Below, one piece after another: positions 23,399 through 63,400 of a DNA stretch of 64,000 nucleotides. Each line of letters opens with the position of its first letter. Position 1 is the first letter of the stretch. The position numbers and the translations under genes are program-made. The notes beneath the pieces were generated by a model, which was not told where the DNA came from, did not search any database, and was given only the letters and a program-made list of their open reading frames with translations. Location of the stretch: assembly GCA_036746695.1 (NCBI GenBank), contig DAIODP010000001.1, positions 1,642,787 to 1,706,786 on the forward strand. Direction: 5' to 3'. The DNA comes from Ilumatobacteraceae bacterium. GTDB lineage: Bacteria; Actinomycetota; Acidimicrobiia; Acidimicrobiales; Ilumatobacteraceae.

Positions 23399-23438
23399 CC
23401 ACTGATGAACGAAGGATGTTGGCAATAGCGTGAACGCC

Positions 23439-23969: not shown

Positions 23970-23977
23970 AAGGCGTT

Positions 23978-24475
23978 ATGGCCGTTGCGTTTTACCCCGG
24001 CAGTTTCGACCCCTTTCATTTGGGGCACCTCGACGTGGTCGAGCAGGCTGTGGCGCTGTTTGGCGACTTGGTGATTGGCGTGATGCATAACCCCGACAAA
24101 GACTCATCCATGTTTACGGCCGACGAACGAGCCGAGCTCATTCGCCAGTCGGTAACGCACCTGGGCAAGAAGGTGTGCGTCGAGAAATATGTGGGCCTCA
24201 CGGTGGATGCGGCAGCCAAGATTGAAGCCAGCCTGATTGTGAAGAGCGCCCGCTCCGGTGCCGACTTCGATATCGAGCAGCAAATGGCGCAGATGAACCA
24301 TGCGGCCAGCGGGGTAGAGACCGTGCTGCTGTTTTCGCGCCCAGAGCACTCCTATATAAGTAGTAGGTACATTCGCCAGTTCACGCTGTCGGGTGGCACC
24401 ATCAAGACGCCAATGGTGACTGCACCAGTGCAGCAGGCGTTGCTAGCAAAGAAAAACAAGGGAGCAAAGTCATGA
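23978..24475 (+). CDS. coaD: Phosphopantetheine adenylyltransferase
   Basis: MAVAFYPGSFDPFHLGHLDVV..., 165 aa. Confidence 0.93.
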   Translation: MAVAFYPGSFDPFHLGHLDVVEQAVALFGDLVIGVMHNPDKDSSMFTADERAELIRQSVTHLGKKVCVEKYVGLTVDAAAKIEASLIVKSARSGADFDIEQQMAQMNHAASGVETVLLFSRPEHSYISSRYIRQFTLSGGTIKTPMVTAPVQQALLAKKNKGAKS

Positions 24476-25673: not shown

Positions 25674-25853
25674 ATGCCAGTACCAAAGAAGAAAAAGTCC
25701 AAGATGAAGGGCCGCAGCCACATGGCAGGCGCCTGGAAACTCGGCACCCCAGCGCGCAGTGTTTGCCCACGATGCAGCACCTCCAAGATGCCACACACAG
25801 TGTGCGGCAATTGCGGTTGGTACAAGGGTCGCGTCGCTGTCGACGTTGGCTAG
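25674..25853 (+). CDS. rpmF: 50S ribosomal protein L32 (Zn-ribbon form)
   Basis: Hand translation gives MPVPKKKKSKMKGRSHMAGAWKLGTPARSVCPRCSTSKMPHTVCGNCGWYKGRVAVDVG. At 59 aa it falls below the ORF-track cutoff. Confidence 0.9.
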   Translation: MPVPKKKKSKMKGRSHMAGAWKLGTPARSVCPRCSTSKMPHTVCGNCGWYKGRVAVDVG

Positions 25854-25874
25854 TAATTACTGAAGGGCTCAACC

Positions 25875-26840
25875 ATGTTGCCCGTTGCAGTTGATGCGCT
25901 TGGTGGCGATAAAGCCCCAGCCGAAATAGTTGCAGGTGCCAAGCAGGCCGCGGCCGAAGGCATTCCCGTATTGCTTGTTGGCCCTGCCGATTTACAAGAC
26001 ATTGGCGAACTGCCGTTGCATGTTGCAACCGAATTTATTGACATGCACGAAGACCCAGCGTCGTCCGTGCGCAACAAAAAAGATTCCACGCTTGTGGTCA
26101 GTGCCGAGTTGGTGCGCGACGGCAAAGCAAGCGCAATGATTTCTGCCGGCAACACCGGCGCAACCATGGCCAGCGCGTTGTTGCGCATGGGCCGCATTAA
26201 AGGCGTGAAGCGCCCAGCAATTGCAACACCCATTCCCGTGCCTGGCAGCACGCCAACAGTGATGTTGGACGCGGGTGCAAACGCCGAAGTAGAGGCTGCA
26301 TGGATGACGCAGTTTGCGTTGATGGGCACGGTGTATGCGCGTGCACGTTTTGGTATTGAAAAACCACGCGTTGGTTTGTTGTCGATTGGTGAAGAGCCAG
26401 GCAAGGGCGACACGTTGCGCAAAGAGACGTTTGAGTTGCTCAGTGTTGCAAGTGGCATCAACTTCATTGGCAACGTTGAAGGCCGCGACATAATGACGCC
26501 CGATGTCGACGTGGTGGTTACCGACGGTTTCACGGGCAACGTTGCGCTGAAAACACTTGAAGGCACCATGCGCATGATTGTGAAAGAACTATTTGCCTCT
26601 ATCGGCGAGCCGCAATATAAAGAGCACACCGAGGCGTTGATGCCGGCTCTTTTGAACTTGTATGCAAAGTTCGACCCCGACTCCACAGGTGGCGCAATCT
26701 TGTTGGGAGTAGATGGCGTGTGCATCATTTCGCACGGCTCATCGAGCGCGCGCGCAATGTTGAATGGCATCAAAGTGGCCAAGGACATGGTTGATTGCAA
26801 CATGGTCTCGTTGATATCCGAGGCGCTGAGCACCCAATGA
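25875..26840 (+). CDS. plsX: Phosphate acyltransferase PlsX
   Basis: MLPVAVDALGGDKAP..., 321 aa. Confidence 0.92.
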   Translation: MLPVAVDALGGDKAPAEIVAGAKQAAAEGIPVLLVGPADLQDIGELPLHVATEFIDMHEDPASSVRNKKDSTLVVSAELVRDGKASAMISAGNTGATMASALLRMGRIKGVKRPAIATPIPVPGSTPTVMLDAGANAEVEAAWMTQFALMGTVYARARFGIEKPRVGLLSIGEEPGKGDTLRKETFELLSVASGINFIGNVEGRDIMTPDVDVVVTDGFTGNVALKTLEGTMRMIVKELFASIGEPQYKEHTEALMPALLNLYAKFDPDSTGGAILLGVDGVCIISHGSSSARAMLNGIKVAKDMVDCNMVSLISEALSTQ

Positions 26841-27541
26841 CGCAACCGCTGCAGGCACTTGCCCGCCGAGTGGGGCACACGTTTGCCGACGAAGCGTTGT
26901 TGGCAACGGCCATGCGTCATCGTTCATGGATTTCGGAACACGATGGGTTCGAGTCCAACGAGCGGCTGGAGTTTTTGGGTGACGCAATTGTTGGTTGGGT
27001 AGTTGCCGACATTGTGTACACGCAACACAGCGACTTGCCAGAAGGAAAACTGACCGACTTGCGCAAGAGTGTGGTGAACGCCATTGCGCTTGCCGAGATG
27101 GCCGTTGATTTGGATATTGGTTCGTGCATCATGTTGGGCAAGGGCGAGGCCGCTGCGGGTGGCAATGAAAAGACATCGATTTTGTCGGATGCATTTGAGG
27201 CCGTTATTGGTGCCGTGTATTTGGATGCGGGCCCAACCGTTGCGCACAGCGTTGTCAGTGCGTTGATGGCGCCGCGCATTGCAGATGCGGTTGGCGGGCT
27301 TGATCGGTTGGATGCAAAGACACGGTTACAAGAGCTTGCTTCCAGGTTGTTAGACCAACACGTGCACTACCGAGTCGTTGATGAAGGCCCCGACCACGAG
27401 AAGATGTTTTATGCAACCGTCATTATTGGCGAGCGCGAACTAGGTAGCGGCGAGGGCCGTTCCAAAAAAGCAGCAGAGCAAATCGCTGCCGAAATTGCGT
27501 GCGACACGCTGCAACGCGAATACAGCCAACAGCTGCAATAG
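26837..27541 (+). CDS. rnc: Ribonuclease III
   Basis: Start ATG 26837 overlaps the plsX stop (ATGA). Contains NERLEFLGDA and a C-terminal dsRBD (GEGRSKKAAEQIAA). Confidence 0.92.
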   Translation: MTQPLQALARRVGHTFADEALLATAMRHRSWISEHDGFESNERLEFLGDAIVGWVVADIVYTQHSDLPEGKLTDLRKSVVNAIALAEMAVDLDIGSCIMLGKGEAAAGGNEKTSILSDAFEAVIGAVYLDAGPTVAHSVVSALMAPRIADAVGGLDRLDAKTRLQELASRLLDQHVHYRVVDEGPDHEKMFYATVIIGERELGSGEGRSKKAAEQIAAEIACDTLQREYSQQLQ

Positions 27542-27544
27542 CCA

Positions 27545-28396
27545 ATGCCCGAGTTGCCGGAAGTAGAAACGGTTCGGCGAGGCATTGCTCGGCACGTTGT
27601 TGGCAAGCGCATTGCCCGTGTTGAAGTTGGCCGCGAACGAACGGTGCGACGCACCAGCAAAGAAGCGCTGATCGATGGCTTGTCGGGCGTGCGCATCACG
27701 CATGTTGGAAGGCGCGGAAAGTATTTGTTGTGTTCGCTTGATTCGGGCGAGCAGATGATGATTCATTTGCGCATGAGTGGGCGAGTGTTGGTGGCAGAGG
27801 CAGGTGCAACGCGCCCGCCGCACACGCATGTGGTGATGCATTTGGATGCAGACGACAACGGGCCCGCAAGCGAGATGTGGTTTGTGGACCCCCGAACGTT
27901 TGGCGAAGTGGTGGTGTTCGACCCGCAGCAGGCCGCGACACAAATGCCCGAACTTGCCAAGCTTGGTATCGACCCGATTGAAGACGAGCTGACGCCGCAA
28001 ATACTTCGCGAGCGATTGAAAGGCAAGCGGGGAAGCCTGAAAGCAACGTTGCTCGACCAACATGTTGTTGCGGGCATTGGCAACATTTATGCCGACGAGA
28101 TTTTGCACCGTGCGCGCCTTAGCCCGCGGCGCATTCCTGGCGTATTGACTCTTGCCACATGCACGCGGTTGTGCGAGGCAATCACGCATGTGCTGAATAA
28201 GGCCATCGAGGCTGGGGGCAGCACGCTTGAAGACACGCAATATGTAGACATCGAAGGCGATACCGGCTGGTTTCAGTTGGAGCACCGGGTGTATGGGCGG
28301 GCAGGCCTGCAATGTCTCACCTGTAAAAAGGCACGGATTTCTCGGACGATTATTGCTGGGCGCACCACCTGTTATTGCCCTGTTTGCCAGCGTTAG
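27545..28396 (+). CDS. mutM: Formamidopyrimidine-DNA glycosylase
   Basis: MPELPEVETVRRG... with a C-terminal zinc finger CLTC...CPVCQ. Confidence 0.93.
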   Translation: MPELPEVETVRRGIARHVVGKRIARVEVGRERTVRRTSKEALIDGLSGVRITHVGRRGKYLLCSLDSGEQMMIHLRMSGRVLVAEAGATRPPHTHVVMHLDADDNGPASEMWFVDPRTFGEVVVFDPQQAATQMPELAKLGIDPIEDELTPQILRERLKGKRGSLKATLLDQHVVAGIGNIYADEILHRARLSPRRIPGVLTLATCTRLCEAITHVLNKAIEAGGSTLEDTQYVDIEGDTGWFQLEHRVYGRAGLQCLTCKKARISRTIIAGRTTCYCPVCQR

Positions 28397-28450
28397 GCCG
28401 GTTTCAAATGCCTTGCAGGGGCACGTTTTCAAGTATTCTCGCCGATTGAC

Positions 28451-45083: not shown

Positions 45084-45740
45084 CTATAAAGAATCGGGAT
45101 TACGGCACTTACATCGGATTACTCCAAGCCGACCATCGGCGGGTTGAACCCAACCGGTACTTGCGCACGCATCGCATTGGGGCGTGGTTTGAAGCGCATT
45201 GCCTATAGCGCCGCTATCGAGCGCGTTGGCTTTGCGCGTTACTTGGTAAATATCTTGGTTACTTATTAGAGGTGCGGTATCAGCACCGCGCATATCGGGC
45301 ATCATTCCGCGCTTATTGCGCCATATTCCGCCCCAATCCTCATCGGTTAGGTGCGGATATTCCGCGCATAACTCATTCAACAGAACCTGCATTTGGTGTA
45401 GGTCAATAGTGCGCTTGGTGGCCGTACCTTTGCCGCCGCGGCTAACTGTTCGCACTACGCCAACCTCAGTTGCCAACCAAAGCACATCGCGCACCGCACC
45501 GACCTTGTGGCCGGTGGCATCGGCTAATTGTTCAAGTGTTGAATCGCACCAATGTCCAATCGGTTTGCCCTCACGATTTTTCTGAATCCGATCGCGATGG
45601 CCAACCTCGCCAACAATTGAACGAAATGCGCGATGCGATACTTTATGAAGCTTTGGCGATTGCTTGTAGGCGTATTCAATAATCGCGGCGCATTGGCCTT
45701 TGGTCAAGTCTGAAATTGCATTTTTCTTTTCGGTGGTCAT
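45084..45740 (-). CDS. Element-encoded hypothetical protein with wHTH-like segment and C-terminal Cys cluster (possible replication/regulatory protein)
   Basis: Start taken at ATG 45740 (MTTEKKNAISD...). Contains STLEQLADATGHKVGAVRDVLWLATEVGVV, and ends CDACASTGW...CKC. Confidence 0.5.
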   Translation of the reverse strand: MTTEKKNAISDLTKGQCAAIIEYAYKQSPKLHKVSHRAFRSIVGEVGHRDRIQKNREGKPIGHWCDSTLEQLADATGHKVGAVRDVLWLATEVGVVRTVSRGGKGTATKRTIDLHQMQVLLNELCAEYPHLTDEDWGGIWRNKRGMMPDMRGADTAPLISNQDIYQVTRKANALDSGAIGNALQTTPQCDACASTGWVQPADGRLGVIRCKCRNPDSL

Positions 45741-45828
45741 CGGTGTTGCATCGATTCGGTAGAGTTTGGGTAATCCGCGGAATAGCGCGCCACGGTCATC
45801 ATCGGTTGGCCGTGGTGACGCGAATTCC

Positions 45829-46128
45829 TTAGATTTGGTTATTGCGCCCCAATGCGGCGCGTAGGGCGGCTGTAGAGACGACACAGCGGCGGCCACAGCG
45901 AATGACGCGCACACCGGCAATCAATTCACCTGTGCGCTTGTGTGCGTTGTGTGCGGTTGCGGCTGAAACGCCGATGATCGCGGCCGCTTGGGTGACCGTA
46001 ATCGTGATAATGCTTGGGTCATCAAGCAGATTCACGGCGCTGATTGTCGGTAATTGACCATCAAGCAAGTCAGAAACGATGGATTCGCGGCTTGCTGTGC
46101 TTTCTAGATTATTGGTGGTAGTTGTCAT
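45829..46128 (-). CDS. Excisionase-family (MerR-like) HTH DNA-binding protein
   Basis: 99 aa containing ITVTQAAAIIGVSAATAHNAHKRTGELIAGVRVIRCGRRCVVSTAAL. Confidence 0.6.
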   Translation of the reverse strand: MTTTTNNLESTASRESIVSDLLDGQLPTISAVNLLDDPSIITITVTQAAAIIGVSAATAHNAHKRTGELIAGVRVIRCGRRCVVSTAALRAALGRNNQI

Positions 46129-46218: not shown

Positions 46219-47070
46219 ATGGCCTCGCAACCAAGCAACACATTTCGCCACGATGGCCACGCTTACACCGTGACGATGATTGAACCAAGGTTTGGCGCAT
46301 CGGGGCAACCATCAGCCGAGGCACTAAAGCGCACAATTGTTGAACGCCCCAAAGTAACCAAAGCGAATCGGGGCAAAACGGTTACGGTCACCGGATATTT
46401 CGCGCCTGCAAGGTTTGAAATCAAAGGATTTCGCCACCCAATCGAAATTGAAACGGCGCAAACCCCGATCACCGGTGCACCCCTCACAATTCAATGGATT
46501 GGCATAGGTACGCGCGGAACATTGGCCTCGATTACCGATTGGATTACGCAAGGCCAAATATCGCTAGACAATTTGCCAATGCGCAAAATCCTTATGGCGG
46601 CCATAAAGGCAAGCGCGTTTACTGCAACCACCACGGCAGTTGATGAAATTACGGAAACAATTGATTTGGGTGGCGGTAAGTCAAAAACCCTAACGATGAA
46701 AATTGGTGACGCGCCACGATTTATGAAATTTAGAAATTCGCCCGATGTTGTATTTACGCGCATCGGCGGCGAGGCAATGCAAGTAAAGAAAACCGCCAAA
46801 GCTCTTAGCGCGCCAACGCAAGTGGAAGCAATCCATCGCGCTGATGCCGCACCAATGAAATCACCGCAAGCATTGAAGCGCATTGCCGACCTATTCACCA
46901 TTGCAGATCAATTGGGCAAAGTCGGCCGCGGTTATAAGCCAATTGCGGAATGGATTGAAATTCAAACCAACGGCCAACGGCCTGCAACTACCGCACAGCA
47001 AATGATCTCGATGGCACGCAAAGCCGGATACCTACCGAAAATCAAAGCAAAGAAACGGGGCACTAAATGA
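46219..47070 (+). CDS. Element-encoded hypothetical protein
   Basis: 283-aa ORF whose stop overlaps the integrase start (ATGA). No family recognised. Confidence 0.55.
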   Translation: MASQPSNTFRHDGHAYTVTMIEPRFGASGQPSAEALKRTIVERPKVTKANRGKTVTVTGYFAPARFEIKGFRHPIEIETAQTPITGAPLTIQWIGIGTRGTLASITDWITQGQISLDNLPMRKILMAAIKASAFTATTTAVDEITETIDLGGGKSKTLTMKIGDAPRFMKFRNSPDVVFTRIGGEAMQVKKTAKALSAPTQVEAIHRADAAPMKSPQALKRIADLFTIADQLGKVGRGYKPIAEWIEIQTNGQRPATTAQQMISMARKAGYLPKIKAKKRGTK

Positions 47071-48539
47071 GTCAGCAACGCGGCACGATTACCAAACGCA
47101 ATAACGCTTGGTGCTATCGATTTAGTTACTTAGACAGCAACGGCAACCGGCGTTGGAAATCCGCGCAAGGTTTCAAAACCAAAGCCGATGCGCAACGGTT
47201 TATGATTTCGCACATTGCCGAAATTGACAGCGGCAAAGGCATCAACCCCGCCAAAATTTCGCTTGCTGATTACTTGACGGCGTGGCTAGATGAATATCGG
47301 CGGGCAAATAGTGGCCGCAAAGCAACCACCATCGCCGAAACGCGCACCAACATCAATGCCTACATTCTGCCGATGCTGTGCAACCAATCTGATCGGCCGC
47401 TGATGCTTGCAAAATTGAAACCCGAAACGGTTGCCCGATTCGCCGCCGATTTACTTGACCACGGCCGCCGAGGCGTAAACGGCAATGCAGGCGGGGCGCT
47501 ATCGCCTAAGAGTGTGCGCAACATCGTTGCCACTTTGCGTAATGCGTTGGAAACGGCGCGTAGGCGTGGGCACATACCAAGCAACCCCGCCGATCACATC
47601 GAATTACCAAAATGGGTGCGGCGAGATTTGCAGGTTTGGGAGTCGGCACAATTCGCACATTTCTTGACCGTTGCCGCGGCCGCTGATGACTATTGCTATG
47701 CGCTTTGGCGCTTGGTCATCGCTACCGGTATGCGCCGCGGTGAGTTGCTTGGCTTGCGTTGGGCTGATGTCGAATTGGTTGATTTGGAACGGGGCGCAAC
47801 GGTGACCATTCGGCAGGCGCGGGTATCTGACGGGTACACCGTCACCACCACCACACCGAAAACCAAAGCGGGTAGGCGCACCATCGCGATTGATTCCGGC
47901 ACGGTGATCGCGTTGGCATTTCTAAAGAATCAGCAAGCCGCCGCCGCCGAAGCTTTGGGTTTGCCAAATTTCGAATTTGTGGCCACCGACCTAGACGGCC
48001 GACTAATCAAGCCCGCCACATTGCTTGACCGATTCCACGCCGCCACACAGCGCGCCGACCTACCGAAATGCCGCTTGCACGATTTACGCCACAGCGCCGC
48101 CGCCTACCAATTGGAAATCGGCACACCGGTGCACATCGTTGCAGGGCGCTTGGGGCACGCATCGCCCGCAACCACTTTGAACATATATGCCGCATTTCTG
48201 CCAACGGCCGACCGAGGCGCAAGCAATGAAATCGGGGCGACCCTTGACCGGCTAATGGCAAATGACCAAACGCGCACATTGCAGGCCATTGGCGAAAACC
48301 AAAACGGCGGCACGGCCAATGCCGCTAAGGATTTGATTCAAAGCAAAGCGCGCACCAAACGCGCACCGAATTTAGAAAAGCACAGCGATTTAGGCACTAC
48401 TAGCGCACACCACGCAAACATAGAACCCAATCAAAATAACGGAAACACTTCTAGCGGTAACGCCGAAATAGTGCCCCCCCTCGGATTCGAACCGAGGACC
48501 TGCGGATTAAGAGTCCGTTGCTCTAACCAACTGAGCTAG
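47067..48539 (+). CDS. Tyrosine recombinase / phage-type integrase
   Basis: N-terminal SAM-like domain, then the catalytic region ATGMRRGELLGLRW...HDLRHSAAA...GRLGHASPATTLNIYAAF. The ORF continues ~115 aa past the catalytic Tyr, across attR and antisense into the tRNA. Confidence 0.88.
   Translation: MSQQRGTITKRNNAWCYRFSYLDSNGNRRWKSAQGFKTKADAQRFMISHIAEIDSGKGINPAKISLADYLTAWLDEYRRANSGRKATTIAETRTNINAYILPMLCNQSDRPLMLAKLKPETVARFAADLLDHGRRGVNGNAGGALSPKSVRNIVATLRNALETARRRGHIPSNPADHIELPKWVRRDLQVWESAQFAHFLTVAAAADDYCYALWRLVIATGMRRGELLGLRWADVELVDLERGATVTIRQARVSDGYTVTTTTPKTKAGRRTIAIDSGTVIALAFLKNQQAAAAEALGLPNFEFVATDLDGRLIKPATLLDRFHAATQRADLPKCRLHDLRHSAAAYQLEIGTPVHIVAGRLGHASPATTLNIYAAFLPTADRGASNEIGATLDRLMANDQTRTLQAIGENQNGGTANAAKDLIQSKARTKRAPNLEKHSDLGTTSAHHANIEPNQNNGNTSSGNAEIVPPLGFEPRTCGLRVRCSNQLS
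48469..48493. repeat. attR: 25-bp direct repeat inside tRNA-Lys
   Basis: Identical to 44764-44788. Confidence 0.85.
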
Positions 48540-48545
48540 AGGGGC
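48472..48545 (-). tRNA. tRNA-Lys (anticodon CTT)
   Basis: The reverse complement GCCCCTCTAGCTCAGTTGGTTAGAGCAACGGACTCTTAATCCGCAGGTCCTCGGTTCGAATCCGAGGGGGGGCA folds as a cloverleaf. Anticodon loop is CTCTTAA. CCA is not encoded. Confidence 0.85.
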
Positions 48546-49032: not shown

Positions 49033-49107
49033 TGGAGCCATGAACTGGAATCGAACCGGCACCACGTGGCTGACGAGGCACGCATGCTGCCGTTACACCA
49101 TCAAGGC
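49033..49107 (-). pseudogene. Degenerate tRNA-like sequence (anticodon loop would read CGT, Thr)
   Basis: The reverse complement has a canonical GGTTCGATTCC T-loop and an encoded CCA. However, it has a T:T mismatch in the acceptor stem, a C:A mismatch in the T-stem, a one-base bulge in the anticodon stem, and a pyrimidine at position 37. Confidence 0.4.
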
Positions 49108-49264: not shown

Positions 49265-49342
49265 TGGGGTGGACGAGGGGTCTCGAACCCCCGGCCTCCA
49301 GGACCACAACCTGGCGCTCTAACCAACTGAGCTACGCCCACC
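49265..49342 (-). tRNA. tRNA-His (anticodon GTG)
   Basis: The reverse complement GGTGGGCGTAGCTCAGTTGGTTAGAGCGCCAGGTTGTGGTCCTGGAGGCCGGGGGTTCGAGACCCCTCGTCCACCCCA has the extra G-1 typical of tRNA-His, anticodon loop TTGTGGT, and an encoded CCA. Confidence 0.88.
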
Positions 49343-51220: not shown

Positions 51221-51283
51221 AGTGAGAGATAAAAAGATTCAGTTGAGAGATAAAAATATTCAATTGAGAGTTTGAAAAATGTC
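51221..51283 (+). repeat. Three tandem ~21-bp direct repeats in an AT-rich leader
   Basis: agtgagagataaaaagattc / agttgagagataaaaatattc / aattgagagtttgaaaaatgtc, located 120-180 nt upstream of the giant ORF start. Confidence 0.7.
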
Positions 51284-51400
51284 TTTCCGACCCTCGACCA
51301 ACAGTTGAGTTTCGAAGCTGCAAAATCTTTTTGGAATTTCGTCTGGTTATAACACTTTTAGATTTGCGTTAATTTTTTTTAGATTCTTAAGTTTCATTCC

Positions 51401-54400
51401 ATGCGCGGAGTGCTTGGAATCAATCGTTTTTGGTGCGCGCGCGCACTCAGGCGTCTCGGTTCCCTTATCGCGTCATTTGCTGCGATTGTTGCATTGTTTC
51501 CTGTCGCTCAGGCAAGCGCCGCGGAGCAGTCTGAGCCCGTGCGCGTATGCACCGAAACGCCAATCGTCGAGGAGCCTCCGACCGAGTCAACAACGTCGAC
51601 TTCCTCAACGTCAAGTGTTCCGACGTCGAGTACTTCCAGCACTTCAACTTCTTCGACCTCGAGTGTTCCAACGTCGAGTACTTCCAGCACTTCAACTTCT
51701 TCGACCTCGAGTACTACCACCACGGAGGTAGTTGAGACTCTGTCGGTAACGAGGCTTGCGACCGAAGATTCAAGCACATCGAGCACATCGAGCACATCGA
51801 GCACATCGTCTACTTCGACCACGTCGACGACTACTCCAACGACCTCCACTTCGAGCACTTCGTCTACGTCGTCTACGTCGTCTACGTCGTCCACTTCGTC
51901 TACGTCGTCCACTTCGTCTACGTCGTCCACTTCGTCTACGTCGTCCACTTCGACAACTACTCCAATTTCTTCCACGACGAGCACAACGGTGCCAACCGAG
52001 GAATCCGATGTTGTCACCACCAGTTGTCCAGCAACTCCGCGCAACGTGGTTGCTACTGGTGGTGACAATTCAATCGTTCTGACTTGGGACGAACCCGAAG
52101 AAGGGACCCCACAGCCCACTGCCTATTTGGCGCTGGTTTCTCCGGGCGAAGTCGAGTTTCGTATTGATGCCCCCAAGACCACAGCTGTCTTGGGCGGTCT
52201 GCTGAATGGAAAGGTGTACGAGGTTCGATTCTTTGCCGAGAACGAATCAGGGCTGAGTGAGTTGGCAGGCCCATTCGAGGTTGCACCGACCAACGGTCTT
52301 GACGGGGTAGTCGGGCGTTTGGTTGTGCAGTACGAAGACGGTGTTGCCTCAACCGAGGCGCCGGGTGTGGCAACCGGATCCAGTTCGGTAAGTGGCATAG
52401 AACTGGTGCCCGAGGTGGACTTGGGCGATGGCCTGCGCACTGTAGAACTCAGCGAGCCAGTATCCGTTGCAACCGCTGCTCAAATTGTGGCCGAGCTTGA
52501 AGCTGACGAACGGGTGAAATGGGCAGAAGTCGACCAGGTGGTCACCACTGCCAGCGCCGAGCCAACAGCCGAGAATCTTGACCCCGATTACCTCGACCGA
52601 CAGTGGAACATGTGGTCTGAATTCGGCGTTGGCGGATCAAAACTATTTCCCTCAACCTTTGGTCGAGGCCCAAAGGACTTGGGCAAGGGCGTAACGGTTG
52701 CAGTAATTGACACTGGCATTACTCGCCATTCGGATTTTGGATCCCGTGTGTTGCCTGGATACGACTTCGTGTCAAGCAGGGCCGAGTTGGCGGCAGCACG
52801 GCAAGCAGATGGTGATGAGGTCGCATTCGATGGTGACTATGTCGACGAAGATGAGTACGGCCCCGTGGGTTGGGACAACAACGCACTTGACCCCGGTGAT
52901 TGGCGCGAAGTAGCGCCAGTGCGCAACAGCAGTTGGCACGGAACCCACGTTGCAGGAATCATTGGCGCGGAAGTAAATAACGCAAACGGAATTGCAGGCT
53001 TGGTTCCACTCGTCGACATTCTTCCCGTGCGCGCACTGAGTTGGCGCGGTGGTTTGTCTTCAGATATTGCTGCCTCAATTATTTGGGCGTCGGGTGGAAG
53101 CGTCGAGGGTGTTGAAGACAACCCAAATCCAGCTCAAGTAATCAACCTGTCGTTTACGACTAAGGCCGCTTGCAGTGAAACATTTCAAAAGGCGATTGAT
53201 GCAGCAGTTGCCAATGGCAGTGTTGTTGCCGTTGCTGCAGGTAACGCCAACAGTGATGTGCGCGACTATGCGCCTGCCAATTGCAATAACGTTGTTGCGG
53301 TTGGTGCAACCGATGCAACCGGCAAGCGCGCCGCGTATTCAAACTTCGGTGAAGGTATCGACATCTCTGCTCCTGGCGGCGACGTCAACGCAAGTGGAGA
53401 CCTTGGTGTGTATTCACTTTCCAATTCGGGAGAGCGCGAACCAGGCGATGATTCGTATGCCTATCGACAAGGAACATCGATGTCGGCGGCACACGTTACG
53501 GCTGCACTTGCCCGCTTGTCGGCTTTGCATCCGAACGCGAAGCCGCTTGAACTCATTTCGATGCTCACGAACAAAGCATCAGTTCGGCCGTTTGCTGATG
53601 ATTCGTGTGACGCCGAACAAGAAAAACTGTGCGGAAGCGGCATCGTTGAAATCGCCAGCAACCCACTCAGCCCGGGTTCGCTCACTGCCGCTGCTGGAGT
53701 GCGCTCGGTTTCGTTGAAGTGGCCTTTGCCTGTCGACGCATCGATCACCGGAGTGTCGATCAAGTGGGGCACCGATGCAAGTGCGCTTACAAACCAGTTC
53801 ACCGTTGCTGGCAGAACAGTAAATAGCTTTGTGCATTCGGGTTCGCCGGTGCGGGTGACCAATAAGGCACTTGCATCGAATATCGCAACGCTCACCACCG
53901 GCACTGCGCACGGTTTGGTGGTTGGCGATTCGGTCGCTGTTTCGGGGGTGGACGCAACATTCAACGGAACACATGTAATCCGTACAGTCACCTCAACAAC
54001 GTTTACGTACTCACGAACTGCAGCAAACGTAACTTCGGTTGCGCTGACCACTGCAGGAAATGCGCAACGAGCAGAGTCGCTCACGATCGGTCAAACGTAT
54101 TACTACCAAATTGCGTATATCTACACCAATAACGCGCAGTCGTGCACCACTGCCTGTATTAGCGACTATGCATCGGTTGTTTCGGCACAAACGCAATTCT
54201 TGGCAAGCACGAATTTTGCAAACACAGGCGCAATTCAGACCTACACAGTTCCAACAGGAGTCACATCAATTCTTGTGGATGCTGTTGGTGCTGCAGGTGG
54301 TTCCACTGCAACAATCACCGGCGGATTGGGTGGTCGCGTACAGGCATCCATTCCCACCACGCAGGGTGAAGTGTTGTTTGTTTTCGTCGGTGGTACTTCC

Positions 54401-57400
54401 GGCACGAATGCGGTGGGTTGGAACGGTGGTGGTGCCGGAACTGCGCCGGGCATGGGTGGTGGCGGAGCATCCGACATACGTCGAGGTTTTTCTGTAACGA
54501 AAGCTTCGATGTCGGGCACCACTGCAACATTGACGACTACAACTGCGCACGGCTTTGCTGTTGGAAATGCAATTCTTGTGGCGAATATCGGCACAACCTA
54601 CGACGGCACCTACACCGTTTTGGCTGTTCCAACGACCACAACTTTTACGTACACAAAAACGGGTGGATCAACCACGAGTGAAACGACTGGATTGTCAGGT
54701 GCGGTAATTCAAACGTTGCCATCACTCGGTCTGGCTCGCCGAATTTTGGTTGCTGGTGGCGGTGGCGGTGCGGGTTCGCACGCCAAGGCGGGCGGTGGCG
54801 GAGAACTCATTGGAGAAACGGCAACAGGCTGGGGCGTTGCGGGTGCTGCTGGCGGCACGCAATCAACTGGCAATGCACTTGCCGTTGGTGGCAATGGAAC
54901 AACCAATGCTGGCGGTGGCGGTGGCGGTTATTACGGCGGTCGAGGTGGAGCCGATTATGGCGGCGGCGGCGGTGGGTCCTCATTCGTTGATGCAGGTGTA
55001 TTCGGCGTGGTGCACACCCAGGCATATTCGCTAGCAACGGGAAATGGTTCGTTAAAGATTTCGCTTCCAAACGCTGCCACCATGCCGACACCCACTTCAT
55101 TTGCGGGCACCGCGTGGTCGAGGACGACAGAACTTACTTGGGCCGCTCCAGTCGTGGATGGCGTAACGGGCTATCGAATTAAATGGGGTACCGACAACAC
55201 AACTGTCAATCAGATCGATGTTGCTGGCGGAGACGTTCGCTCGTTTACGCATTCCAGCCGACCATTTGCCGTTAGTTCAAAGTCAATGACCACAACGGTT
55301 GCAACACTGACAACTTCGGTTGATCATGGATTAGCAATTGGTCAACAGGTTTCGGTAACAGGTGTTGACGCTGTGTTCAACGGCATCTACACCATTGCGT
55401 CAGTTCCAACAACGAAGACATTTACTTATGCACGAACGGGAACGGCCGTGTCTGCAACTGCGGTCTCACCAACTGGTTTGGTGCAACGAACAAACAACTT
55501 GGTGCTTGGGCAGAACTACTTCTACAAGATCGCTGCCATTTATACCGACATCACTCAGCCGTGCGGAACGTCATGTCTTTCGTCGTACACATCGACAATC
55601 ACGGTTGATGGAAAAGTGGGCAACTCGCAAACTTTCGAGTTCAACGACGGCACGCACACCTACAAAGTTCCACCCGATGTAACCAAAATTCAGGTTGACG
55701 CGCAAGGTGGTGCTGGCGGATCTTCCGGTGCCATTGCCGGTGGTTTTGGCGGGCGATTGCAAGCAACGGTTCCCGTAACACCTGGCGAAACACTGTTTAT
55801 TTATGTTGGTGGTGGTGGTGGCAATCACTACCCATTTACGTACAAAGTGCCAATCACTGGTGGGCGAAATGGCGGTGGTGCGGGAGTAGGTAACGGCTCT
55901 GGTGGCGGTGGCGCAACCGATATTCGTCGCGGGTTTACCGTCACGAATGCGGCGCTCACCAGTAATTTTGCAACACTCACCACGTCTGTTGCTCACGGCT
56001 TTGCAGTGAGTAACTATGTTGTGGTTGCAGGTTTAAGTGACACCTTTAATGGCAGTTACATCATTACTGCAGTAACCACCAACACGTTTACTTACGCGAA
56101 AGAAGCTGCCAACGTAACTTCTTCCACTGTTGATGGTGCGGTGTTCTACTTAAACCCTGCCCTCGGGCTTTCGCAGCGAGTGTTGGTTGCCGGCGGCGGT
56201 GGCGGCGTTGGGCACGCTGCATATGTAGGCGGTGCAGGTGGCGGGTTGGTTGGCGGTGTGGGTGGGTCGCATTCGTGTGGCACCTATTGCGGTGGTTTGG
56301 GTGGTTCGCAAACATTCGGAAATGCTTTTGGTGTTGGTGGAAACGCAACGACAACTAATTCTGGTGGTGGCGGTGGCGGTTATCGCGGCGGCTATTCCGG
56401 TGGTCAATCCGGTCAGCCAGATGCTCGCGGTACTGATGGGTATTCGGGTGGTGGCGGTGGTTCAAGCTGGACAGCGTCCGACATTGTGTTTGCGACGCAT
56501 ACCCAGGGCTTCCGCAATGGCAACGGTTTGCTCACCATTACTACTGCGCAAACCGCAGCAGTTTCCACGCCAGTAGACCTCGCTGCTTATGGTTGGAACA
56601 CTCGTGTTCATGTTTCGTGGGCTGCGTCGACAAATCAGGAAACCACTGGTTATCGAATTAAGTGGGGCACTGCATCGGGCGCACTCACGAATGTGATCAA
56701 TGTTGCTGGCCGCGATGTCGTGGAATATGTTCATACCAGCCGCGCCATGGGTACGCGCTATTTCTATTCCATCGCTGCTGTGTTCACGGATATGAATCAG
56801 GATTGCTTGGCGGAATGTCTTTCAGATTTTTCTGCAGAGGTGTCGGACACTCCGCGGTTTACTGCAGCAACAAGTTTCGACTTCACAGAAACCATTCAGT
56901 CGTACACCGTGCCGGCGGGTGTTAGCCGTATCAATGTCAGCGCGCAAGGTGCGCAAGGTGGCAGTGCTTCGGCGGTAGGTGGTCTGGGTGGCATTGTTTC
57001 TGCCACGATGCCGGTGACAGCAGGTGAAACCCTATTTGTGTTCGTTGGCGGTGGTGGCGGTGACAATCATCCTGCGAGGTACCAAGCGCCAAGTGTGGGC
57101 GGATGGAACGGTGGCGGAACAGGAAACAGTTCTGGAGGAATTGGTGGCGGTGGTGGTGGTGCGACAGACATTCGCAGAGGCACTTCGGTAACAAATGCGG
57201 TGCTGACGTCACGAGTAGCAACGTTGACAACATCTGTTGCTCATGGCTTTGCTGTTGGCAACTCGGTTGTCGTCGCTGGCGTCGGTGCTCTCTACGACGG
57301 GACATATTCAGTAACGGCAGTTACCTCAACAACTTTTTCGTATGCGAAGGTCGAACTCGATCAGGCATCTTCAACAGTGAATGGTGCAGTCATTCGCAAC

Positions 57401-60400
57401 CTGACCACTGCAAACCTCGATCGACGAGTGGTAGTTGCTGGCGGCGGCGGTGGTATTGGCCACAACGTGCGTGTGGGAGGTGCCGGTGGTGGGCTGACTG
57501 GCGGTGAAGGTGCAAACCACGGTTGTCCTTCATACTGTGCTGGCCTTGGTGGTTCGCAAACGTATGGCAATGCCTTAGGGGTTGGTGCTTCGGCAACGGT
57601 GACGGGGGCCGGTGCAGGTGGCGGCGGTTATTGGGGTGGTTATGCCTCTGGACAAAGCCCGCAGCAGTGGCGCTCGGAAACGGGTGGTTACTCCGGCGGT
57701 GGAGGTGGCTCAAGTTGGACTGCCAGCAACCTCAGTTTTGTTACGCACTCTCAAGGTGCAAAGTCGGGCAACGGAAAACTAGAAATTTATGCGCAACAAG
57801 GCGGCTCGATTAGCGCTCCTACCAATTTCGATGCCTATGGCTATCAGGCACAGGTGGTGTTGAGTTGGACGCCTTCACCGCAACCCATCGTTTCGGGGTA
57901 CAGAATCTCGTGGGGTACTTCACAAGGCGTGCTGACGAACAACATTGATGTACCTGATCGTCTGGCACAAAGTTTTGTACACCACGGAAACACATTTTCA
58001 GTAACAACAAAATCACTCGCCACAAATGTGGCAACGCTTACGACGAGCTCTACGCATGGAATCGCTGTTGGCAACGAATTCATTGTGCAAGGTGCCGGCG
58101 AACCGTTCGACGGCACTTATACGGCCACAACAGGCACGACGGGAACAACCATTAAGTACGCGCGAACAAACGCGAACGTGGCGTTGGCATCCATAAGCCC
58201 TGCCGCTGTTGTCTCGCGCACGAAACAACTTGCCATTAACACCACCTACTACTACGAAATCTCTGCGTTGTATACCGATGCCGCACAGACATGCAACACA
58301 ACATGCGAATCGGGTTCTTCCACGCAGCGTTATGCAACTCCAATTTTTACTCAGGACACAACGTTTGATGCAACTGGTGGAGTGCAAACCTTCACGGTGC
58401 CGGCTGGCGTGTCGTGGCTGCAGTTTGATGCGCAAGGTGCTGGTGGTGGCAGGGGTGGGACTGGTATCGGCGGTTTCGGTGGTCGCGTGCAGGGCGCAAT
58501 TCCGGTTACGTCTGGCGAAGTGTTGTATCTGTATGTAGGTGGCAGGGGCGGAGGTTCGCTCAATGCCACGCAACACGTTGGTGGTTGGAACGGTGGCGGT
58601 AACGGTTCCGCTGTGGGGCAGGGCGGCGGCGGTGGTGGCGCTACTGATATTCGTCGCAACAAGCTTGTTGTAACGAACAAAATTATTCAGTCAAGTACTG
58701 CAACGTTGACGACTGCAGCGACTCATGGACTGAGTGTTGGTGATTCGGTCATCGTTTCTGGTGTTGGTACCGAATTCAATGGAACATTTACCCTGACCGC
58801 AATCAACGCCACAAACAAGACCTTGTCGTATGCGGTGTCGACATCTTCATTTACTGCTGCTTCGTCTTCGGGAACAGTTTCTGGTCCAAGTGCTTGGGAC
58901 ACTGCAGCGTCACTTGCCACTCGCGTAGTGGTTGCCGGTGGTGCGGGCGGTGGCGGCAACGACAAGGTTGGTGGTATTGGTGGCGGGCTCGTTGCTGGTC
59001 AGGGTGGAAGCAATAGCTGTGCAAATGGTGCTGCAAGTGAAAACTGTTCCGGTCTTGGTGGCTCCCAAACGTATGGCAATGCTCTTGGTGTTGGTGGAAA
59101 CGCGGCAGCAACTCATTCGGGTGGCGGTGGCGGTGGTTATTGGGGCGGTTGGGGTGCGGCTCAATCGCCGCAACTAAGTCGCGTCGCAACGGGCGGCTAC
59201 TCCGGTGGCGGTGGCGGATCCAGCTTCACTTCTGCTGCAGCGCTGTCGTCACTTGACCAACGCACGATTTCTGGAATAACTCACACCAGTGGCTTCAATC
59301 AATCCGGTGGAGTGCTCACGCTGTCGGTGCCAACTCGCGCATACCCAACTGGTGTTGAAGCACTGGGTTGGGGTGGATATAACTCAATTAGTTGGGATGC
59401 TTCGAACATTACAGGTGTAACGCAATACAAGGTGTACGGCGGCACGACACAGAACCCCACCACGTTGCTAGCAACACTGCCTGTCGGAATAAATGCTTTC
59501 GACCATCATCTTGCAACACCAATTGTGGTCTCTCAAAAGGCCCTCACCAGCAACGTGGTAACACTGACAACAGCTTCAGCGCACGGATTTTCGGTTGGCA
59601 CAGTTGTTTCCGTAAGCGGAGTCGATCCTGCGTTCAACGGGCTTCGAACAATTACCGCAGTTGCCAATACCACCTTGTCGTTCGCATTCACCGCTGCAAA
59701 CATTGCGTCAACTGCAATTCAATCTGGCGTCGTTCAGTCGGCAAACAGTTTGACGTACGGAACCGCCTATTACTACCGAGTTTCGATCATGACCGGCTCA
59801 ATCGAGTCGCAACGTTCGACAGAGGTTTCTGCGACGCCCGCTTTGAGCAGTTCAACTTCGTTTGAATCGACTGGTGCTGTGCAAACATTTACGGTTCCTG
59901 TCAACGTCAACAAGATATTCATTGATGCACTTGGTGCTGGAGGCGCAAGAGGTACGACAGGTGTCGGTGGCGCGGGTGGTCGCGCGCAGGGCGCAATTCC
60001 GGTTACTCCTGGCGAAGTGTTGTATCTGTATGTGGGCGGCAAGGGCGGCGGTTCGCTCACTTCCACGCTGAACATTGGTGGTTGGAATGGCGGCGGTAAC
60101 GGTTCTGGCGCGGGTGCTGGTGGTGGCGGTGGTGGTGCAACTGATATTCGTCGCAACAAGCTTGTAGTTACGAACAAAATTATTCAGTCAAGTACTGCAA
60201 CGTTGACGACTGCAGCGACTCATGGACTGAGTGTTGGTGATTCGGTCATCGTTTCTGGTGTTGGTACCGAATTCAATGGAACATTTACCCTGACCGCAAT
60301 TGACGCCGCAAACAAGAAATTGTCCTATGCGGTTTCAACTGCAACGTTTGCAACTTCTACCTCTTCGGGAACAGTGTCAGGGCCGAGCGCATGGAACACA

Positions 60401-63400
60401 GCCGCATCACTTGCAACACGCGTGCTCGTTGCTGGTGGCGGCGGTGGAGGTGGAAACAATAACTTTGGTGGTGTAGGCGGAGGCTTGATTGGCGGCGAAG
60501 GTGGAAACCACAGTTGCTATCAGGGGTATTGCGCTGGTTTTGGTGGTTCGCAAACGTATGGCAACGCACTTGGTGTTGGTGGCGCAACGGGCCAAACCAA
60601 TGCCGGTGGCGGCGGCGGTGGTTATTGGGGTGGTTGGGCCTCGGGCCAGGCGCATCTCGACCGAACAGGAACTCTTGGCTACTCCGGCGGCGGTGGCGGA
60701 TCTAGTTTCACGAGCGCTGACGTTACGTCTGTTTTCCATGCCCAAGGGATGAATTCTGATGCGGGCAGCGCGGTCATCTCGTGGACTTCTACGCCCATCG
60801 TTACTGGAGTTCAAGCCACTCCACTGAATGCTTCTATTGCTGTCAGCTGGAATGCGTCAAACCTTGGGTCGTTGTCCGGATATCGCGTGTACGGCGGTAC
60901 GACTGCGGCACCAACAACATTGTTGGCAACGGTTGGTGCTGGTGTACTGGGCTACACGCACACCGGGTTAACAAATGGAACGACTTACTTTTACCGAATT
61001 TCGGCCATAGTCACCGAAAACGGTGTAACTACAGCGACCCCGCTATCGGGTGATGCTTCGGCAACGCCAACGACACTTACGACAACAGACTTTGCATCCA
61101 CTGGTGCGGTGCAAACTTTTGTGGTTCCTGCTGGCGTGTTGTGGCTGCAACTCGATGCATCTGGCGCGCAAGGCGGCACTGGTAGCACTGGCGTCGGTGG
61201 TCGTGGTGGGCGAACGCAGGGCGCTCTTGAAGTAGTGCCAGGAGAAACGCTGTATTTCTATGTTGGCGCAGCAGGTGCTCAAAATATTGGTGGTTTTAAT
61301 GGCGGAGGTAACGGTTCTGGCGCGGGTGCTGGTGGTGGCGGTGGTGGTGCCACTGATGTTCGTCGTAACAGGCTTGTTGTCACGAACAAAGCACTTGCAT
61401 CAAATGTTGCAACGCTGACAACTGCATTTGCTCATGGATATAGCGTCGGCAATACGATCATTGTGCAAGGTGTTGGCGAACCGTTTGATGGCACGTACAC
61501 AACTATTACTGGAACAACGGGATCAACCATTAAGTATTCGCGAACAAATGCGGATATTTCTTCAACAGCGGTAAGTGGAACCGTGTCGGGTCCAAGTACA
61601 TGGAACACAGCCGCATCACTTGCAACGCGCGTGCTCGTTGCTGGTGGTGGCGGTGGAGGTGGAAACAATAACTTTGGTGGTGTAGGCGGAGGTTTAATTG
61701 GCGGCGAAGGTGGAAACCACAGTTGCTATCAGGGGTATTGCGCTGGTTTTGGTGGTTCGCAAACGTATGGCAACGCACTTGGTGTTGGTGGCGCAACGGG
61801 CCAAACCAATGCCGGTGGCGGCGGCGGTGGTTATTGGGGTGGTTGGGCCTCGGGCCAGGCGCATCTCGACCGAACAGGAACTCTTGGTTATTCCGGTGGT
61901 GGTGGCGGTTCCAGCTTCACGGCAAGCGACGTTGCCGTTCCGGTGCACACTCAAGGATTCAAGTCGGGTGCAGGGTCGCTAACAGTTTCGTATTCGGTAG
62001 ACAACACGCCACCAGTGGTGACCGGTATTTCATCGCCGAATCCATCTGGTAACTACATCGTGGGGAGAGAAATAACGGTCAACGTTGCGTTTTCAAAAGC
62101 CGTAGTAGTTACTGGTACACCAACATTGCTGCTGGATGCTGGCACGCGCGATGTAACAGTCAACTACGTGTCGGGCAGCGGTACTTCTACGTTGACATTT
62201 ACTTATGTGGTTGCAACTGGAGACTTGAAGGACGAACTTGATGTCAAGAGCACGACTGCGCTCGCTCTTCCAACTTCTCCAGCCGGCACCATTAAGGACC
62301 GTGCAGGAAATAATGCGGTGCTCACATTGCCGGAAGTTGCTAGTGCGGCATCATTAAGCGGAAGTAAATTGTTAGCAATCGATGGAGTGGTTCCAATAAA
62401 GCCAACCGTACTTACGGCAGCCGGTGTAGATGGAATCACGCTCGATTGGGCGGACAACCTGGAAACAGATTTGAAGGAGTACCGAATCTATTCCTGCTCT
62501 GGCCTTGTGGCGTCAAGTTGTTCATCGCTGTCTTCGTTCAGCGTGCTCAGCAGTGTTGTTTCGGGTGTAAGTACGTTCGAGCACATTGCAGTGGGCCGCG
62601 GTATTTCGTACTACTACTACGTAACAGCAGTAGACCTTCGCGGCAACGAGAGCCCTGCATCAGACCGCATTTCGTGGATGTTGCCGGTGCCGGTGCTGGT
62701 TGCCACTCCAACTGTGGTGGTTGCAACGCCAACAAATGACCTCACACCCCAAGTGACAGGTGCAGCCGACGCGGGCGCGACGGTGTACGTGTATCTCGAT
62801 GGAAGCTCGACGCCACTCGGTTCAACGGTTGCAACTAGTGAAGGCGCGTACGCATTTTCTCCGCCATCGAACATTTCGGCGGGCACGCACACCTTTAGGG
62901 CGCGCGCAGTTGTCACAGGCGTAAAAACAGGAACATCTGGATTTTCAAATTCGGCTTCTGTCGACATCGATACGACGGCGCCATCGCTCTCCAGCATTTC
63001 GCGATTTGCTCCATCATCGGAAACCACAGGTTTGGATGCGTTGACTTTCAGGTTGATCTTTACGGAGGCAGTAAGCGGGTTGTTGGCAGATGATTTTGCG
63101 ATTTCTGGGTCGACGGCCACGGTTTCCCGAATTGCAATGCTCAGTGGATCAACGGGAACGTACGACGTAACCGTTTCTGGAGGCAACCTCGCTGATCGCA
63201 ACGGAGTAATCGGGCTGACGCTTGCTACGGGGGCAACAGTCACCGATATTGCAGGAAATGCGCTATCGAGCACTACGTCATCAACAACGCCACAAACATA
63301 CACATTGGACAACCGAAACCCTGTTGCAACAATTACTTCGTCTGCAACAACATTGGGCGGGGCGAATACGGCGACCATTACCTTTACGTTGGATCAATCA

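Follow-up and report, generated by a model that had tools for sequence, protein, structure and literature searches.

Six tandem modules with ALK/LTK-type glycine-rich domains and nested beta-barrels in a predicted giant surface protein of Ilumatobacteraceae

A stretch of 64,000 nt from an Ilumatobacteraceae bacterium (Actinomycetota; GenBank assembly GCA_036746695.1, contig DAIODP010000001.1, positions 1,642,787 to 1,706,786; hereafter the window) carries most of a giant gene predicted to encode a protease-bearing surface protein. The protein contains six tandem modules, each consisting of a fibronectin type III-like (FN3-like) domain and a glycine-rich domain (GRD) homologous to the TNF-like plus glycine-rich unit of the animal receptors ALK and LTK. 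A small beta-barrel is nested in every GRD and in four of the FN3-like domains, and the barrels in the GRDs are exchanged between close strains. We suggest that the protein might act in adhesion, as a multivalent fibre holding a protease in position, a function argued by analogy and to which we assign about even chances.

Domain models, sequence profiles and predicted structure identify each GRD as a true homologue of the ALK/LTK unit. An earlier reading of the DNA made without database searches (the sequence-only reading) had named PF12810 (ALK_LTK_GRD) as the matching family. In the Pfam scan, all six modules exceed the curated gathering cut-off of 24.5 bits, with scores of 39.8-62.8 bits and E-values of 6.8e-10 to 6.5e-17. 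Every match falls in two stretches because the barrel insert splits each GRD. Searched against PDB sequences, a profile of the six modules alone reaches ALK only at E 0.36. A deeper profile of 114 bacterial GRDs, the six window modules included, retrieves ALK (7mzw/7n00/7nx3) at E 3.5e-13 to 6e-13 and LTK at 6e-11, collinear over profile positions 58-290 and chain positions 51-315. The ALK motif order that the sequence-only reading had given is reproduced in this alignment, including DMLYILVGQQGE, GGGGGGYIGG and GVSFISP (E 3.5e-13). For module 6, an AlphaFold2 model based on the GRD alignment has a mean predicted local distance difference test (pLDDT) score of 90.3 and a predicted template-modelling score of 0.77. 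In a Foldseek search of the PDB, the 12 best matches to this model are without exception LTK/ALK TNF-like plus glycine-rich structures (E 1.1e-7 to 6.6e-6, probability 1.0). The fold comparison of one module thus ranks LTK/ALK first, rather than returning an unrelated fold with no PF12810 or ALK match. Template-modelling (TM) scores on the target are modest (0.35-0.47) because the module 6 query also contains the FN3-like domain and the barrel. The glycine runs of the model are neither helix nor strand by DSSP, with pLDDT above 90, which is compatible with polyglycine-II.

The similarity to ALK/LTK (PDB 7NX1, 7N00, 7LRZ, 7NWZ) covers the motif order of the whole domain as well as the best fold match, and extends to the cysteine pair HSC...C in five of the six window modules. 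The context is different. The window GRDs stand six in tandem with an FN3-like domain before each, and have no EGF-like, transmembrane or kinase context. They also lack the insert of ~27 residues that ALK has after ..VGQQGE, and carry the 73-residue barrel where ALK has its ATYVF hairpin. No kinase or EGF-like domain was matched in the Pfam-scanned segments. Identification as an ALK/LTK receptor tyrosine kinase was rejected on these grounds and because each GRD precedes the next FN3-like or Ig-like domains. The window protein is a domain homologue, not a receptor kinase.

The sequence-only reading had proposed six tandem FN3 and GRD modules at 53660-61995, and the array is borne out with frame-correct limits of 53660-61993 (Table 1). 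The six modules align over 534 columns, with modules 2-6 being 43-50% identical to module 1. At the DNA level, the six copies lie in register at a spacing of 1209-1509 nt, and stretches of identity reach 91% between modules 4 and 5 and 97% between modules 5 and 6. The motifs GGGGA[TS]D[IV]RR, GG[ST]Q..GNA..VG, GGGGGGY.GG and Y[SG]GGGGGSS[FW] each occur exactly six times in a motif count, and the GRD cores consist of 29-32% glycine. The originally listed GGSQTYGNALGVG-, GGGGGGYWGG- and GYSGGGGGSSF-type strings recur in all six modules, but HSC...C is missing from module 1. That description captured the motif string but was incomplete, having overlooked the insert of ~73 residues in each GRD and in four FN3-like domains. 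The FN3 label had to be qualified as well, since the sequence score lies under the Pfam cut-off and support comes mainly from the fold. PF00041 scores reach 18.9 bits in module 3 and 20.4 bits in module 6, under the gathering cut-off of 25, and Pfam gives no PF00041 match in modules whose FN3-like domain is interrupted by a barrel. The module profile reaches fibronectin in the PDB at E 0.0047. The N-terminal part of the module 6 model is a seven-strand sandwich, for which Foldseek returns fibronectin FN3 tandems at ~E 1e-5. NCBIfam holds no model matching the GRD modules or the Ig-like stalk that follows them.

The nested unit of ~73 residues lies between ..ATDIRR and RVLVAGGGG.. in all six GRDs, and between the ..SFVH[ST] and L..G..Y[YF]Y strands in the FN3-like domains of modules 1, 2, 4 and 5. 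The ten copies in total (six GRD, four FN3) share the consensus ..VTNKAL.SNVATLTT..AHG..VG..V.V.GV...F[ND]GTY..T.V...TF.Y.. and most other bacterial GRD proteins have no equivalent. In those proteins, ..A[ST]D[IV]R is followed by a short hairpin and R..VAGGGGG, whereas ~80 residues lie between the two strings here. Modelled alone, the unit forms a six-stranded beta-barrel with a pLDDT of 96.5. The closest folds in the PDB belong to the FCCH domain of ubiquitin E1 and to the inserted barrel of the K1F and phi92 phage endosialidases (Foldseek TM 0.63-0.70, probability ~1, E 9e-3 or worse). Against PF16190 (E1_FCCH), the best window copy scores 22.2 bits, under the gathering cut-off of 29.5, and four of the ten copies searched separately match with E-values no better than 0.0025. 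By its fold the barrel is FCCH-like, but it is not a PF16190 member. A barrel profile found nothing meaningful among PDB sequences, the best match being uL30m at E 0.57. The barrels of E1 FCCH and of the K1F/phi92 endosialidases, as well as the tandem barrels of Dit/Mtd proteins, resemble the window barrel in being six-stranded, having adjacent termini and being nested in another domain. The likeness is one of fold, and the hosts differ, being GRD and FN3 in the window protein and a beta-propeller in the endosialidases. Lectin-like properties, with a sialic-acid site, have been ascribed to the endosialidase barrel.

Among PHROG families, the barrel also matches those for tail fibre, major tail and virion structural proteins. 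A tblastn search of phage genomes located it in major tail proteins of Microbacterium phages. Only the barrel was matched in that search, and no part of the GRD, because the low-complexity filter masks glycine-rich parts. An exhaustive profile search at E<=1e-3 recovered a barrel family of 5,204 representative proteins, many of which have 10-23 copies in tandem. Among nine top matches scanned for domains, SPP1_Dit was found in three and Mtd_N in one, and three multi-copy members reached the E1_FCCH cut-off by summed score. The GRD is also present in only 4 of the best 150 barrel-family proteins, and the nested GRD-barrel arrangement is therefore specific to the protein family described here. 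The barrel family seems to be without a dedicated Pfam model. Its top members comprise phage Dit-/Mtd-type tail proteins and several giants of 4,000-7,600 residues without a GRD.

The nearest relatives among GTDB species representatives are metagenome-assembled genomes (MAGs) of freshwater Actinomycetota, from the Umpqua River (88%), Acidimicrobiales (73%), Candidatus Nanopelagicales of Lake Mendota (48%) and Ilumatobacteraceae. The FN3-S8-(FN3-GRD)n-Ig architecture is also found in the orthologues L001-L005. Six modules with an identical insert pattern are shared by the window protein, L085 from the same population and the 64%-identical L087. The Nanopelagicales orthologue L004 has six modules too, with a slightly different insert pattern. 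The GRD-GRD identity matrices of the window protein against L085 and L087 are diagonal-dominant, and the modules are therefore old, individually conserved paralogues and not a recent expansion. Single GRDs occur in Bacteroidota, Eremiobacterota, Solirubrobacterales, Myxococcota, Gammaproteobacteria and Streptomyces, and GRD relatives as a whole span soil, gut and wastewater bacteria as well as cyanophages. Giant multi-GRD open reading frames (ORFs) are also found in two unrelated lineages. A Bacteroidales MAG encodes at least 6,280 residues with eight N-terminal GRD halves (L059, 1481-20320), and an Actinomycetota MAG from Lac Pavin encodes at least 6,015 residues with five (L006, 4049-22093), both without the barrel. 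Together with L004, these were the three further loci observed to have five or more GRDs.

Near-identical strains differ mainly through exchange of the GRD-embedded barrels. Sliding identity between the window protein and L085 is 90-100% across most of the protein and 42-50% precisely where modules 2, 4 and 5 have their GRD-embedded barrels. In an all-against-all comparison, the window barrels of GRDs 4 and 5 (G4 and G5) represent one cassette type, being mutually 88% identical. The same type is found at G2 in L085 (79%) and at positions 4-6 in L005 and L087. L085, L083 and L084 instead carry a G6-type barrel at G4 (92%) and G5 (89%). Between the same strains, the FN3-embedded barrels keep an identity of 93-96% in modules 1, 4 and 5, with 73% in module 2. 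The barrels in the GRDs thus act like interchangeable cassettes, and the exchange could most simply proceed by intragenic gene conversion. Strain-level swapping of exposed cassettes fits selection on the ligand of the fibre or on the agents that recognize it.

The variation among strains bears on two other explanations of the array. GRDs could form a structural spacer of rigid, side-chain-poor, protease-resistant rods keeping the subtilase off the cell, with the barrels as ligand-free decoration. Such a role would suit the glycine content of the GRD cores, the typical stalk repeats (Big_12, Big_13, Big_6) in the rest of the protein and a module number fixed at six in distant orthologues, as expected for length setting. 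Strain replacement focused on the embedded barrels would be unexpected for a pure spacer though, the GRD and barrel types occupy receptor-binding ends of phage tails, and cheaper Ig-like repeats already supply length. We regard the spacer as unlikely, while granting it some weight. Alternatively, the fibre could be a protective coat or decoy against phage adsorption or flagellate grazing, a very small cell being shielded by long fibres in dense array, with shuffling serving the escape from fibre-using phages rather than binding. The concentration of variation in exposed cassettes of near-identical strains would be expected in this case. High microdiversity of cell-surface genes has been reported for freshwater Actinobacteria (PMC12817590), and the same article cites Tarao et al. 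2009 for surface structures in grazing resistance. A coat would leave both the catalytically intact subtilase at the tip and the six distinct, positionally orthologous modules unexplained, and no phage is known to use the fibre, which makes this explanation quite unlikely.

The array sits within a much larger protein. A single stop-free frame spans 51383-64000 on the + strand (4,206 codons in the six-frame translation of the window), with ATG at 51401 as the probable start codon. The gene leaves the window at its 3' end, and the 96%-identical orthologue L083 runs 2,881 residues further. With a corresponding number of additional codons (~2,881), the full-length protein would therefore have ~7,090 residues. 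The order from the N-terminus is putative signal peptide, Ser/Thr-rich stretch, FN3-like domain, subtilase and six FN3-GRD modules. Going by the orthologues, the modules are followed by ~15 Ig-like domains, the first of them still inside the window, then by ~8 helical repeats, a linker rich in Pro/Thr/Val and, at the C-terminus, a multi-pass membrane domain. A gene of this size would fill ~1% of a roughly 2-Mb genome, which suggests a function worth its cost.

At the N-terminal end, the Ser/Thr-rich linker of 138 residues is 85% serine plus threonine and is encoded by 9-, 18- and 48-nt tandem repeats. The following domain has no Pfam match at E<0.01, and its FN3 label is inferred. The subtilase match to PF00082 (E 2.7e-50) spans profile positions 1-287 of 288 in the Pfam scan. 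Asp, His and Ser of the catalytic triad follow in order as D443 (DTG), H519 (HGTH) and S699 (GTSMS), and the triad is intact as judged from these motifs. Assignment of the subtilase as a mycosin was rejected, with 112 bits against an NCBIfam cut-off of 279. N-terminal S8 domains on giant proteins have been noted before, with self-processing versus other substrates posed as a question (bioRxiv 10.1101/2023.11.21.568195).

At the other end, stalk matches within the window include PF19078 (E 6.2e-21) and PF19077 (E 3.9e-6), and the last 336 window residues recovered the 96%-identical orthologues in a metagenome scan. In the tail of L083, Pfam identifies seven Big_13 domains as well as Big_12 and Big_6. 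The tail then continues with ~8 helical repeats of ~100 residues, a Pro/Thr/Val-rich linker, an Ig-like domain and, as far as the stop, hydrophobic segments that repeat over ~330 residues. The region at 11283-15719 of L083 comprises the helical repeats (..SELEALAATVAGIFETAAGG..LTPEALAAIGISGVNSDNLAAVIAALAAT..) and the multi-pass hydrophobic C-terminal domain of ~330 residues. Neither the helical repeats nor the membrane domain has a convincing Pfam, NCBIfam or PDB match, and the only matches lie far under the cut-off, namely VKOR (37.5 bits versus 182) and GxPGS_dom (21.9 versus 45). Sortase anchoring through LPXTG was rejected, as the C-terminus of L083 examined by eye shows repeated hydrophobic segments and no LPXTG with a single anchor helix. 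An RTX-type adhesin was rejected likewise, with no RTX family in the Pfam scan of the tail. The view of a protease-tipped surface fibre, first put forward in the sequence-only reading, holds up given the N-terminal signal peptide, the Peptidase_S8 domain with its Asp/His/Ser triad and the C-terminal multi-pass membrane domain of the orthologue. An N-terminal signal peptide combined with a C-terminal membrane domain would place the subtilase and the GRD array at the distal end.

The sequence-only reading had proposed a multivalent ligand-binding or lattice-forming role, which is a reasonable suggestion. We suggest the following arrangement for a multivalent adhesion fibre of a planktonic freshwater actinobacterium, with the array as its distal shaft. 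The C-terminal domain would anchor the protein in the cytoplasmic membrane, the proline-rich linker would span the cell wall, and the Ig-like and helical repeats would form the stalk. In an extended state, such a fibre could measure ~200 nm or more. The six GRD modules with their ten exposed barrels would provide a rigid multivalent binding region just under the protease head. A binding region is proposed because the TNF-like plus glycine-rich pair and the barrels serve recognition elsewhere, as in the Pam3 tip, ALK/LTK and phage tails. The array might tether the cell to some polymeric ligand, with glycan-bearing particles or other cells as the likeliest case, and the protease might then act on the bound material. 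Intragenic gene conversion would move GRD-embedded barrels among modules, and co-occurring strains would therefore display different barrel sets. The differing sets might alter binding specificity or evade recognition by phages or grazers.

Several points weigh against such a fibre. The case for adhesion is one of analogy, with phage tail fibres and other giant surface proteins, and the GRDs could be mere rigid spacers. The barrel matches to PF16190 and to PDB structures are weak by E-value. The membrane anchor is deduced from orthologues only, by a hydropathy scan. Subtilases usually cleave off their own prodomain, so that not all parts need stay on the fibre. In ALK/LTK, the GRD is the cytokine-binding unit. 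The ALKAL-type ligands (ALKAL1/2) are animal proteins with no bacterial counterpart, and the ligand mode of ALK is therefore not transferable to the window GRDs.

Phage tail proteins provide a functional precedent for a GRD outside animals. The sequence-only reading had stated that bacterial homologues have no known function. The statement holds for bacteria in the searchable literature, but for a phage homologue, the tail fibre protein gp24 of cyanophage Pam3, a structure has been determined and a role in host recognition assigned (PMC9608196). The tip of gp24 combines TNF-like and glycine-rich parts and resembles ALK of C. elegans. The GRD fold is shared by many proteins of phages and giant viruses, with E-values down to 8e-13 (Foldseek against BFVD). 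Pam3 gp24 and the window protein both place a non-animal TNF-like plus glycine-rich unit at the far end of an extracellular fibre. The phage protein is short, forms a homotrimer, docks through an alpha-helical domain and has a chaperone of its own, in contrast to the window protein, which is cellular rather than part of a virion and carries nested barrels and several GRDs in cis on one polypeptide. In a bolder version of the adhesion fibre, the FN3-GRD-barrel array would be a cellular counterpart of the phage receptor-binding apparatus, six-headed and re-targeted by cassette swaps through gene conversion. The array would latch onto partner or prey cells such as cyanobacteria or algae, and the subtilase at the tip would digest their surface proteins. 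If this doubtful, speculative extension were correct, the ligand-binding domain of animal ALK/LTK would descend from an ancient microbial or viral module for cell-surface recognition.

The protein might be taken for the remnant of a prophage or tail fibre instead of a surface protein of the cell, given the tyrosine integrase and tRNA cluster 2-4 kb upstream of the giant gene and the frequency of both GRD and barrel in phage tail proteins. The tRNAs separate the integrase from the giant gene, however, and the genes directly upstream encode an aminotransferase and a DUF983 protein, with no adjacent phage structural or replication genes. Signal peptide, subtilase, Ig-like stalk and C-terminal membrane domain are equally at odds with a remnant, and the architecture is kept in several Actinomycetota lineages. 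A remnant is hence hardly credible. A phage tail fibre or receptor-binding protein was rejected because the neighbours are cellular, a signal peptide and membrane domain are present, and the PHROG matches are confined to the 73-residue barrel.

Large ice-binding adhesins exist in other bacteria. The array could conceivably bind ice or a crystal surface via flat polyglycine-II lattices, in the manner of the snow-flea antifreeze protein (sfAFP), and so hold cells to the ice of lakes that freeze seasonally. Polyglycine-II bundles are known from sfAFP, which is listed together with ALK and S16 gp38 as glycine-rich polyproline-II (PPII) bundles (PMC13243192), and the closest relatives of the window protein come from temperate lakes and rivers. 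Ice binding is nevertheless very improbable. GRD relatives are spread across soil, gut and wastewater bacteria and cyanophages, PDB sequence-profile searches detected no similarity to antifreeze proteins, and the only functionally described GRD relatives bind proteins or cell-surface receptors.

The glycine-rich domain of ALK/LTK is usually treated as a peculiarity of animal receptors. Databases already list bacterial and viral members as glycine-rich domain-containing proteins; with these entries and one solved phage example, the domain itself is not new. To our knowledge, no bacterial GRD homologue has been studied experimentally. Searches of the accessible literature retrieved no description of bacterial multi-GRD proteins, and no account of a fixed six-module FN3-GRD array, a barrel in the GRD hairpin or barrel exchange between strains. 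Nor did they retrieve, for the abundant freshwater Actinomycetota, a GRD array joined to a subtilase at the tip and a multi-pass domain at the C-terminus, and the architecture appears to be undescribed. Among known giant proteins, S8 surface proteins likewise have thousands of Ig-like/FN3 residues, a protease on the N-terminal side and transmembrane segments, and they take up much of a small genome (bioRxiv 10.1101/2023.11.21.568195). The same preprint contains no mention of "glycine" or "ALK". Giant1-5 of Apilactobacillus are comparable as giant surface adhesins (PMC12863079). The window protein differs from known giant adhesins in having no LPXTG or RTX/type I secretion system signature in the parts seen, and the anchor of its family is a C-terminal multi-pass domain unmatched in Pfam, NCBIfam or the PDB. 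The window protein is neither a receptor kinase, nor a phage tail fibre, nor an LPXTG/RTX adhesin.

The protein joins three literatures, namely those on the structures of the ALK receptor, on phage tail-fibre tips rich in polyglycine and on giant surface proteins of bacteria. Freshwater Actinomycetota dominate lake bacterioplankton, and their surface biology is tied to grazing and phage pressure. With six diverged copies, a confident model and a natural barrel-exchange experiment between close strains, the protein offers a test case for bacterial GRDs.

Table 1. Features of the giant gene and its upstream region. Positions are those of the window; module boundaries are frame-correct cuts at 53660, 55091, 56540, 57800, 59330, 60770 and 61994.
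Feature	Position	Strand	Evidence or remark
Giant surface-protein gene, 5' 12.6 kb	51401..64000	+	Stop-free frame, translation, orthologue L083
Putative Sec-type signal peptide MRGVLGINRFW...FPVAQASA	51401..51520	+	Reading of the translation
Ser/Thr-rich low-complexity linker	51584..51997	+	Translation, repeat scan
N-terminal FN3-like domain before protease	52028..52297	+	Kept in orthologues L001, L002, L004; motif pattern
Peptidase_S8 (subtilase) domain	52682..53638	+	PF00082 E 2.7e-50, triad motifs
Catalytic codons	Asp 52709-52711, His 52937-52939, Ser 53477-53479	+	Triad motifs
Module 1: FN3-like with barrel 53846-54064; GRD 54185-55063 with barrel 54482-54703	53660..55090	+	PF12810 E 7e-14
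Module 2: FN3-like with barrel 55259-55483; GRD 55607-56539 with barrel 55928-56149	55091..56539	+	PF12810 E 6.8e-10
Module 3: FN3-like without insert; GRD 56849-57790 with barrel 57176-57397	56540..57799	+	PF12810 E 6.5e-17; fn3 E 0.0018, under cut-off
Module 4: FN3-like with barrel 57989-58213; GRD 58334-59326 with barrel 58658-58885	57800..59329	+	PF12810 E 1.2e-14
Module 5: FN3-like with barrel 59519-59737; GRD 59831-60778 with barrel 60155-60382	59330..60769	+	PF12810 E 2.8e-14; E1_FCCH E 1.5e-4 on FN3 insert
Module 6 (modelled): FN3-like without insert; GRD 61061-61990 with barrel 61367-61591	60770..61993	+	PF12810 E 1.8e-13; AlphaFold2; Foldseek
Start of Ig-like stalk: Big_13 62732-62974; Big_12 63308-63595 and a second stretch; FN3-like	61994..64000	+	Pfam
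Tyrosine integrase ORF (Phage_integrase and Arm-DNA-bind_4)	47067-48539	+	Ends within tRNA-Lys gene
tRNA-Lys(ctt)	48471-48545	-	Contains end of integrase ORF
tRNA-like gene, four-base anticodon (cgtc)	49033-49107	-	ARAGORN; between tRNA-Lys and tRNA-His
tRNA-His(gtg)	49265-49341		tRNA cluster
21-nt direct repeat TGAGAGATAAAAAGATTCAAT, 2.3 copies	51223..51270	+	AT-rich 218-nt gap upstream of start codon

The neighbouring genes in the window are ordinary chromosomal ones, including fakA, recG, smc, ftsY, ffh, trmD and phoX. The end of the integrase inside the tRNA-Lys gene points to an integrated element left of the tRNA cluster. Two ORFs beside the integrase (45084-45920 and 46219-47070) have no Pfam match. 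The 21-nt direct repeat in front of the giant gene may be an operator, a promoter or another regulatory site, and a simple scan found no sigma-70-like promoter or terminator there. Further away on the - strand, the ORFs at 23183-24088, 25850-26920 and 27440-28432 have no Pfam match. The G+C content is ~0.39-0.47 in window positions 1-12000 and ~0.52-0.59 in 12001-64000, and the GC skew is strongly positive at 12-24 kb. An ORF of 1,130 residues at 19722-23114 (- strand) has no Pfam match at E<1e-3. The phmmer similarity of this ORF to the Big_12-type region of the giant protein (3e-25) indicates that it probably encodes a second surface protein.

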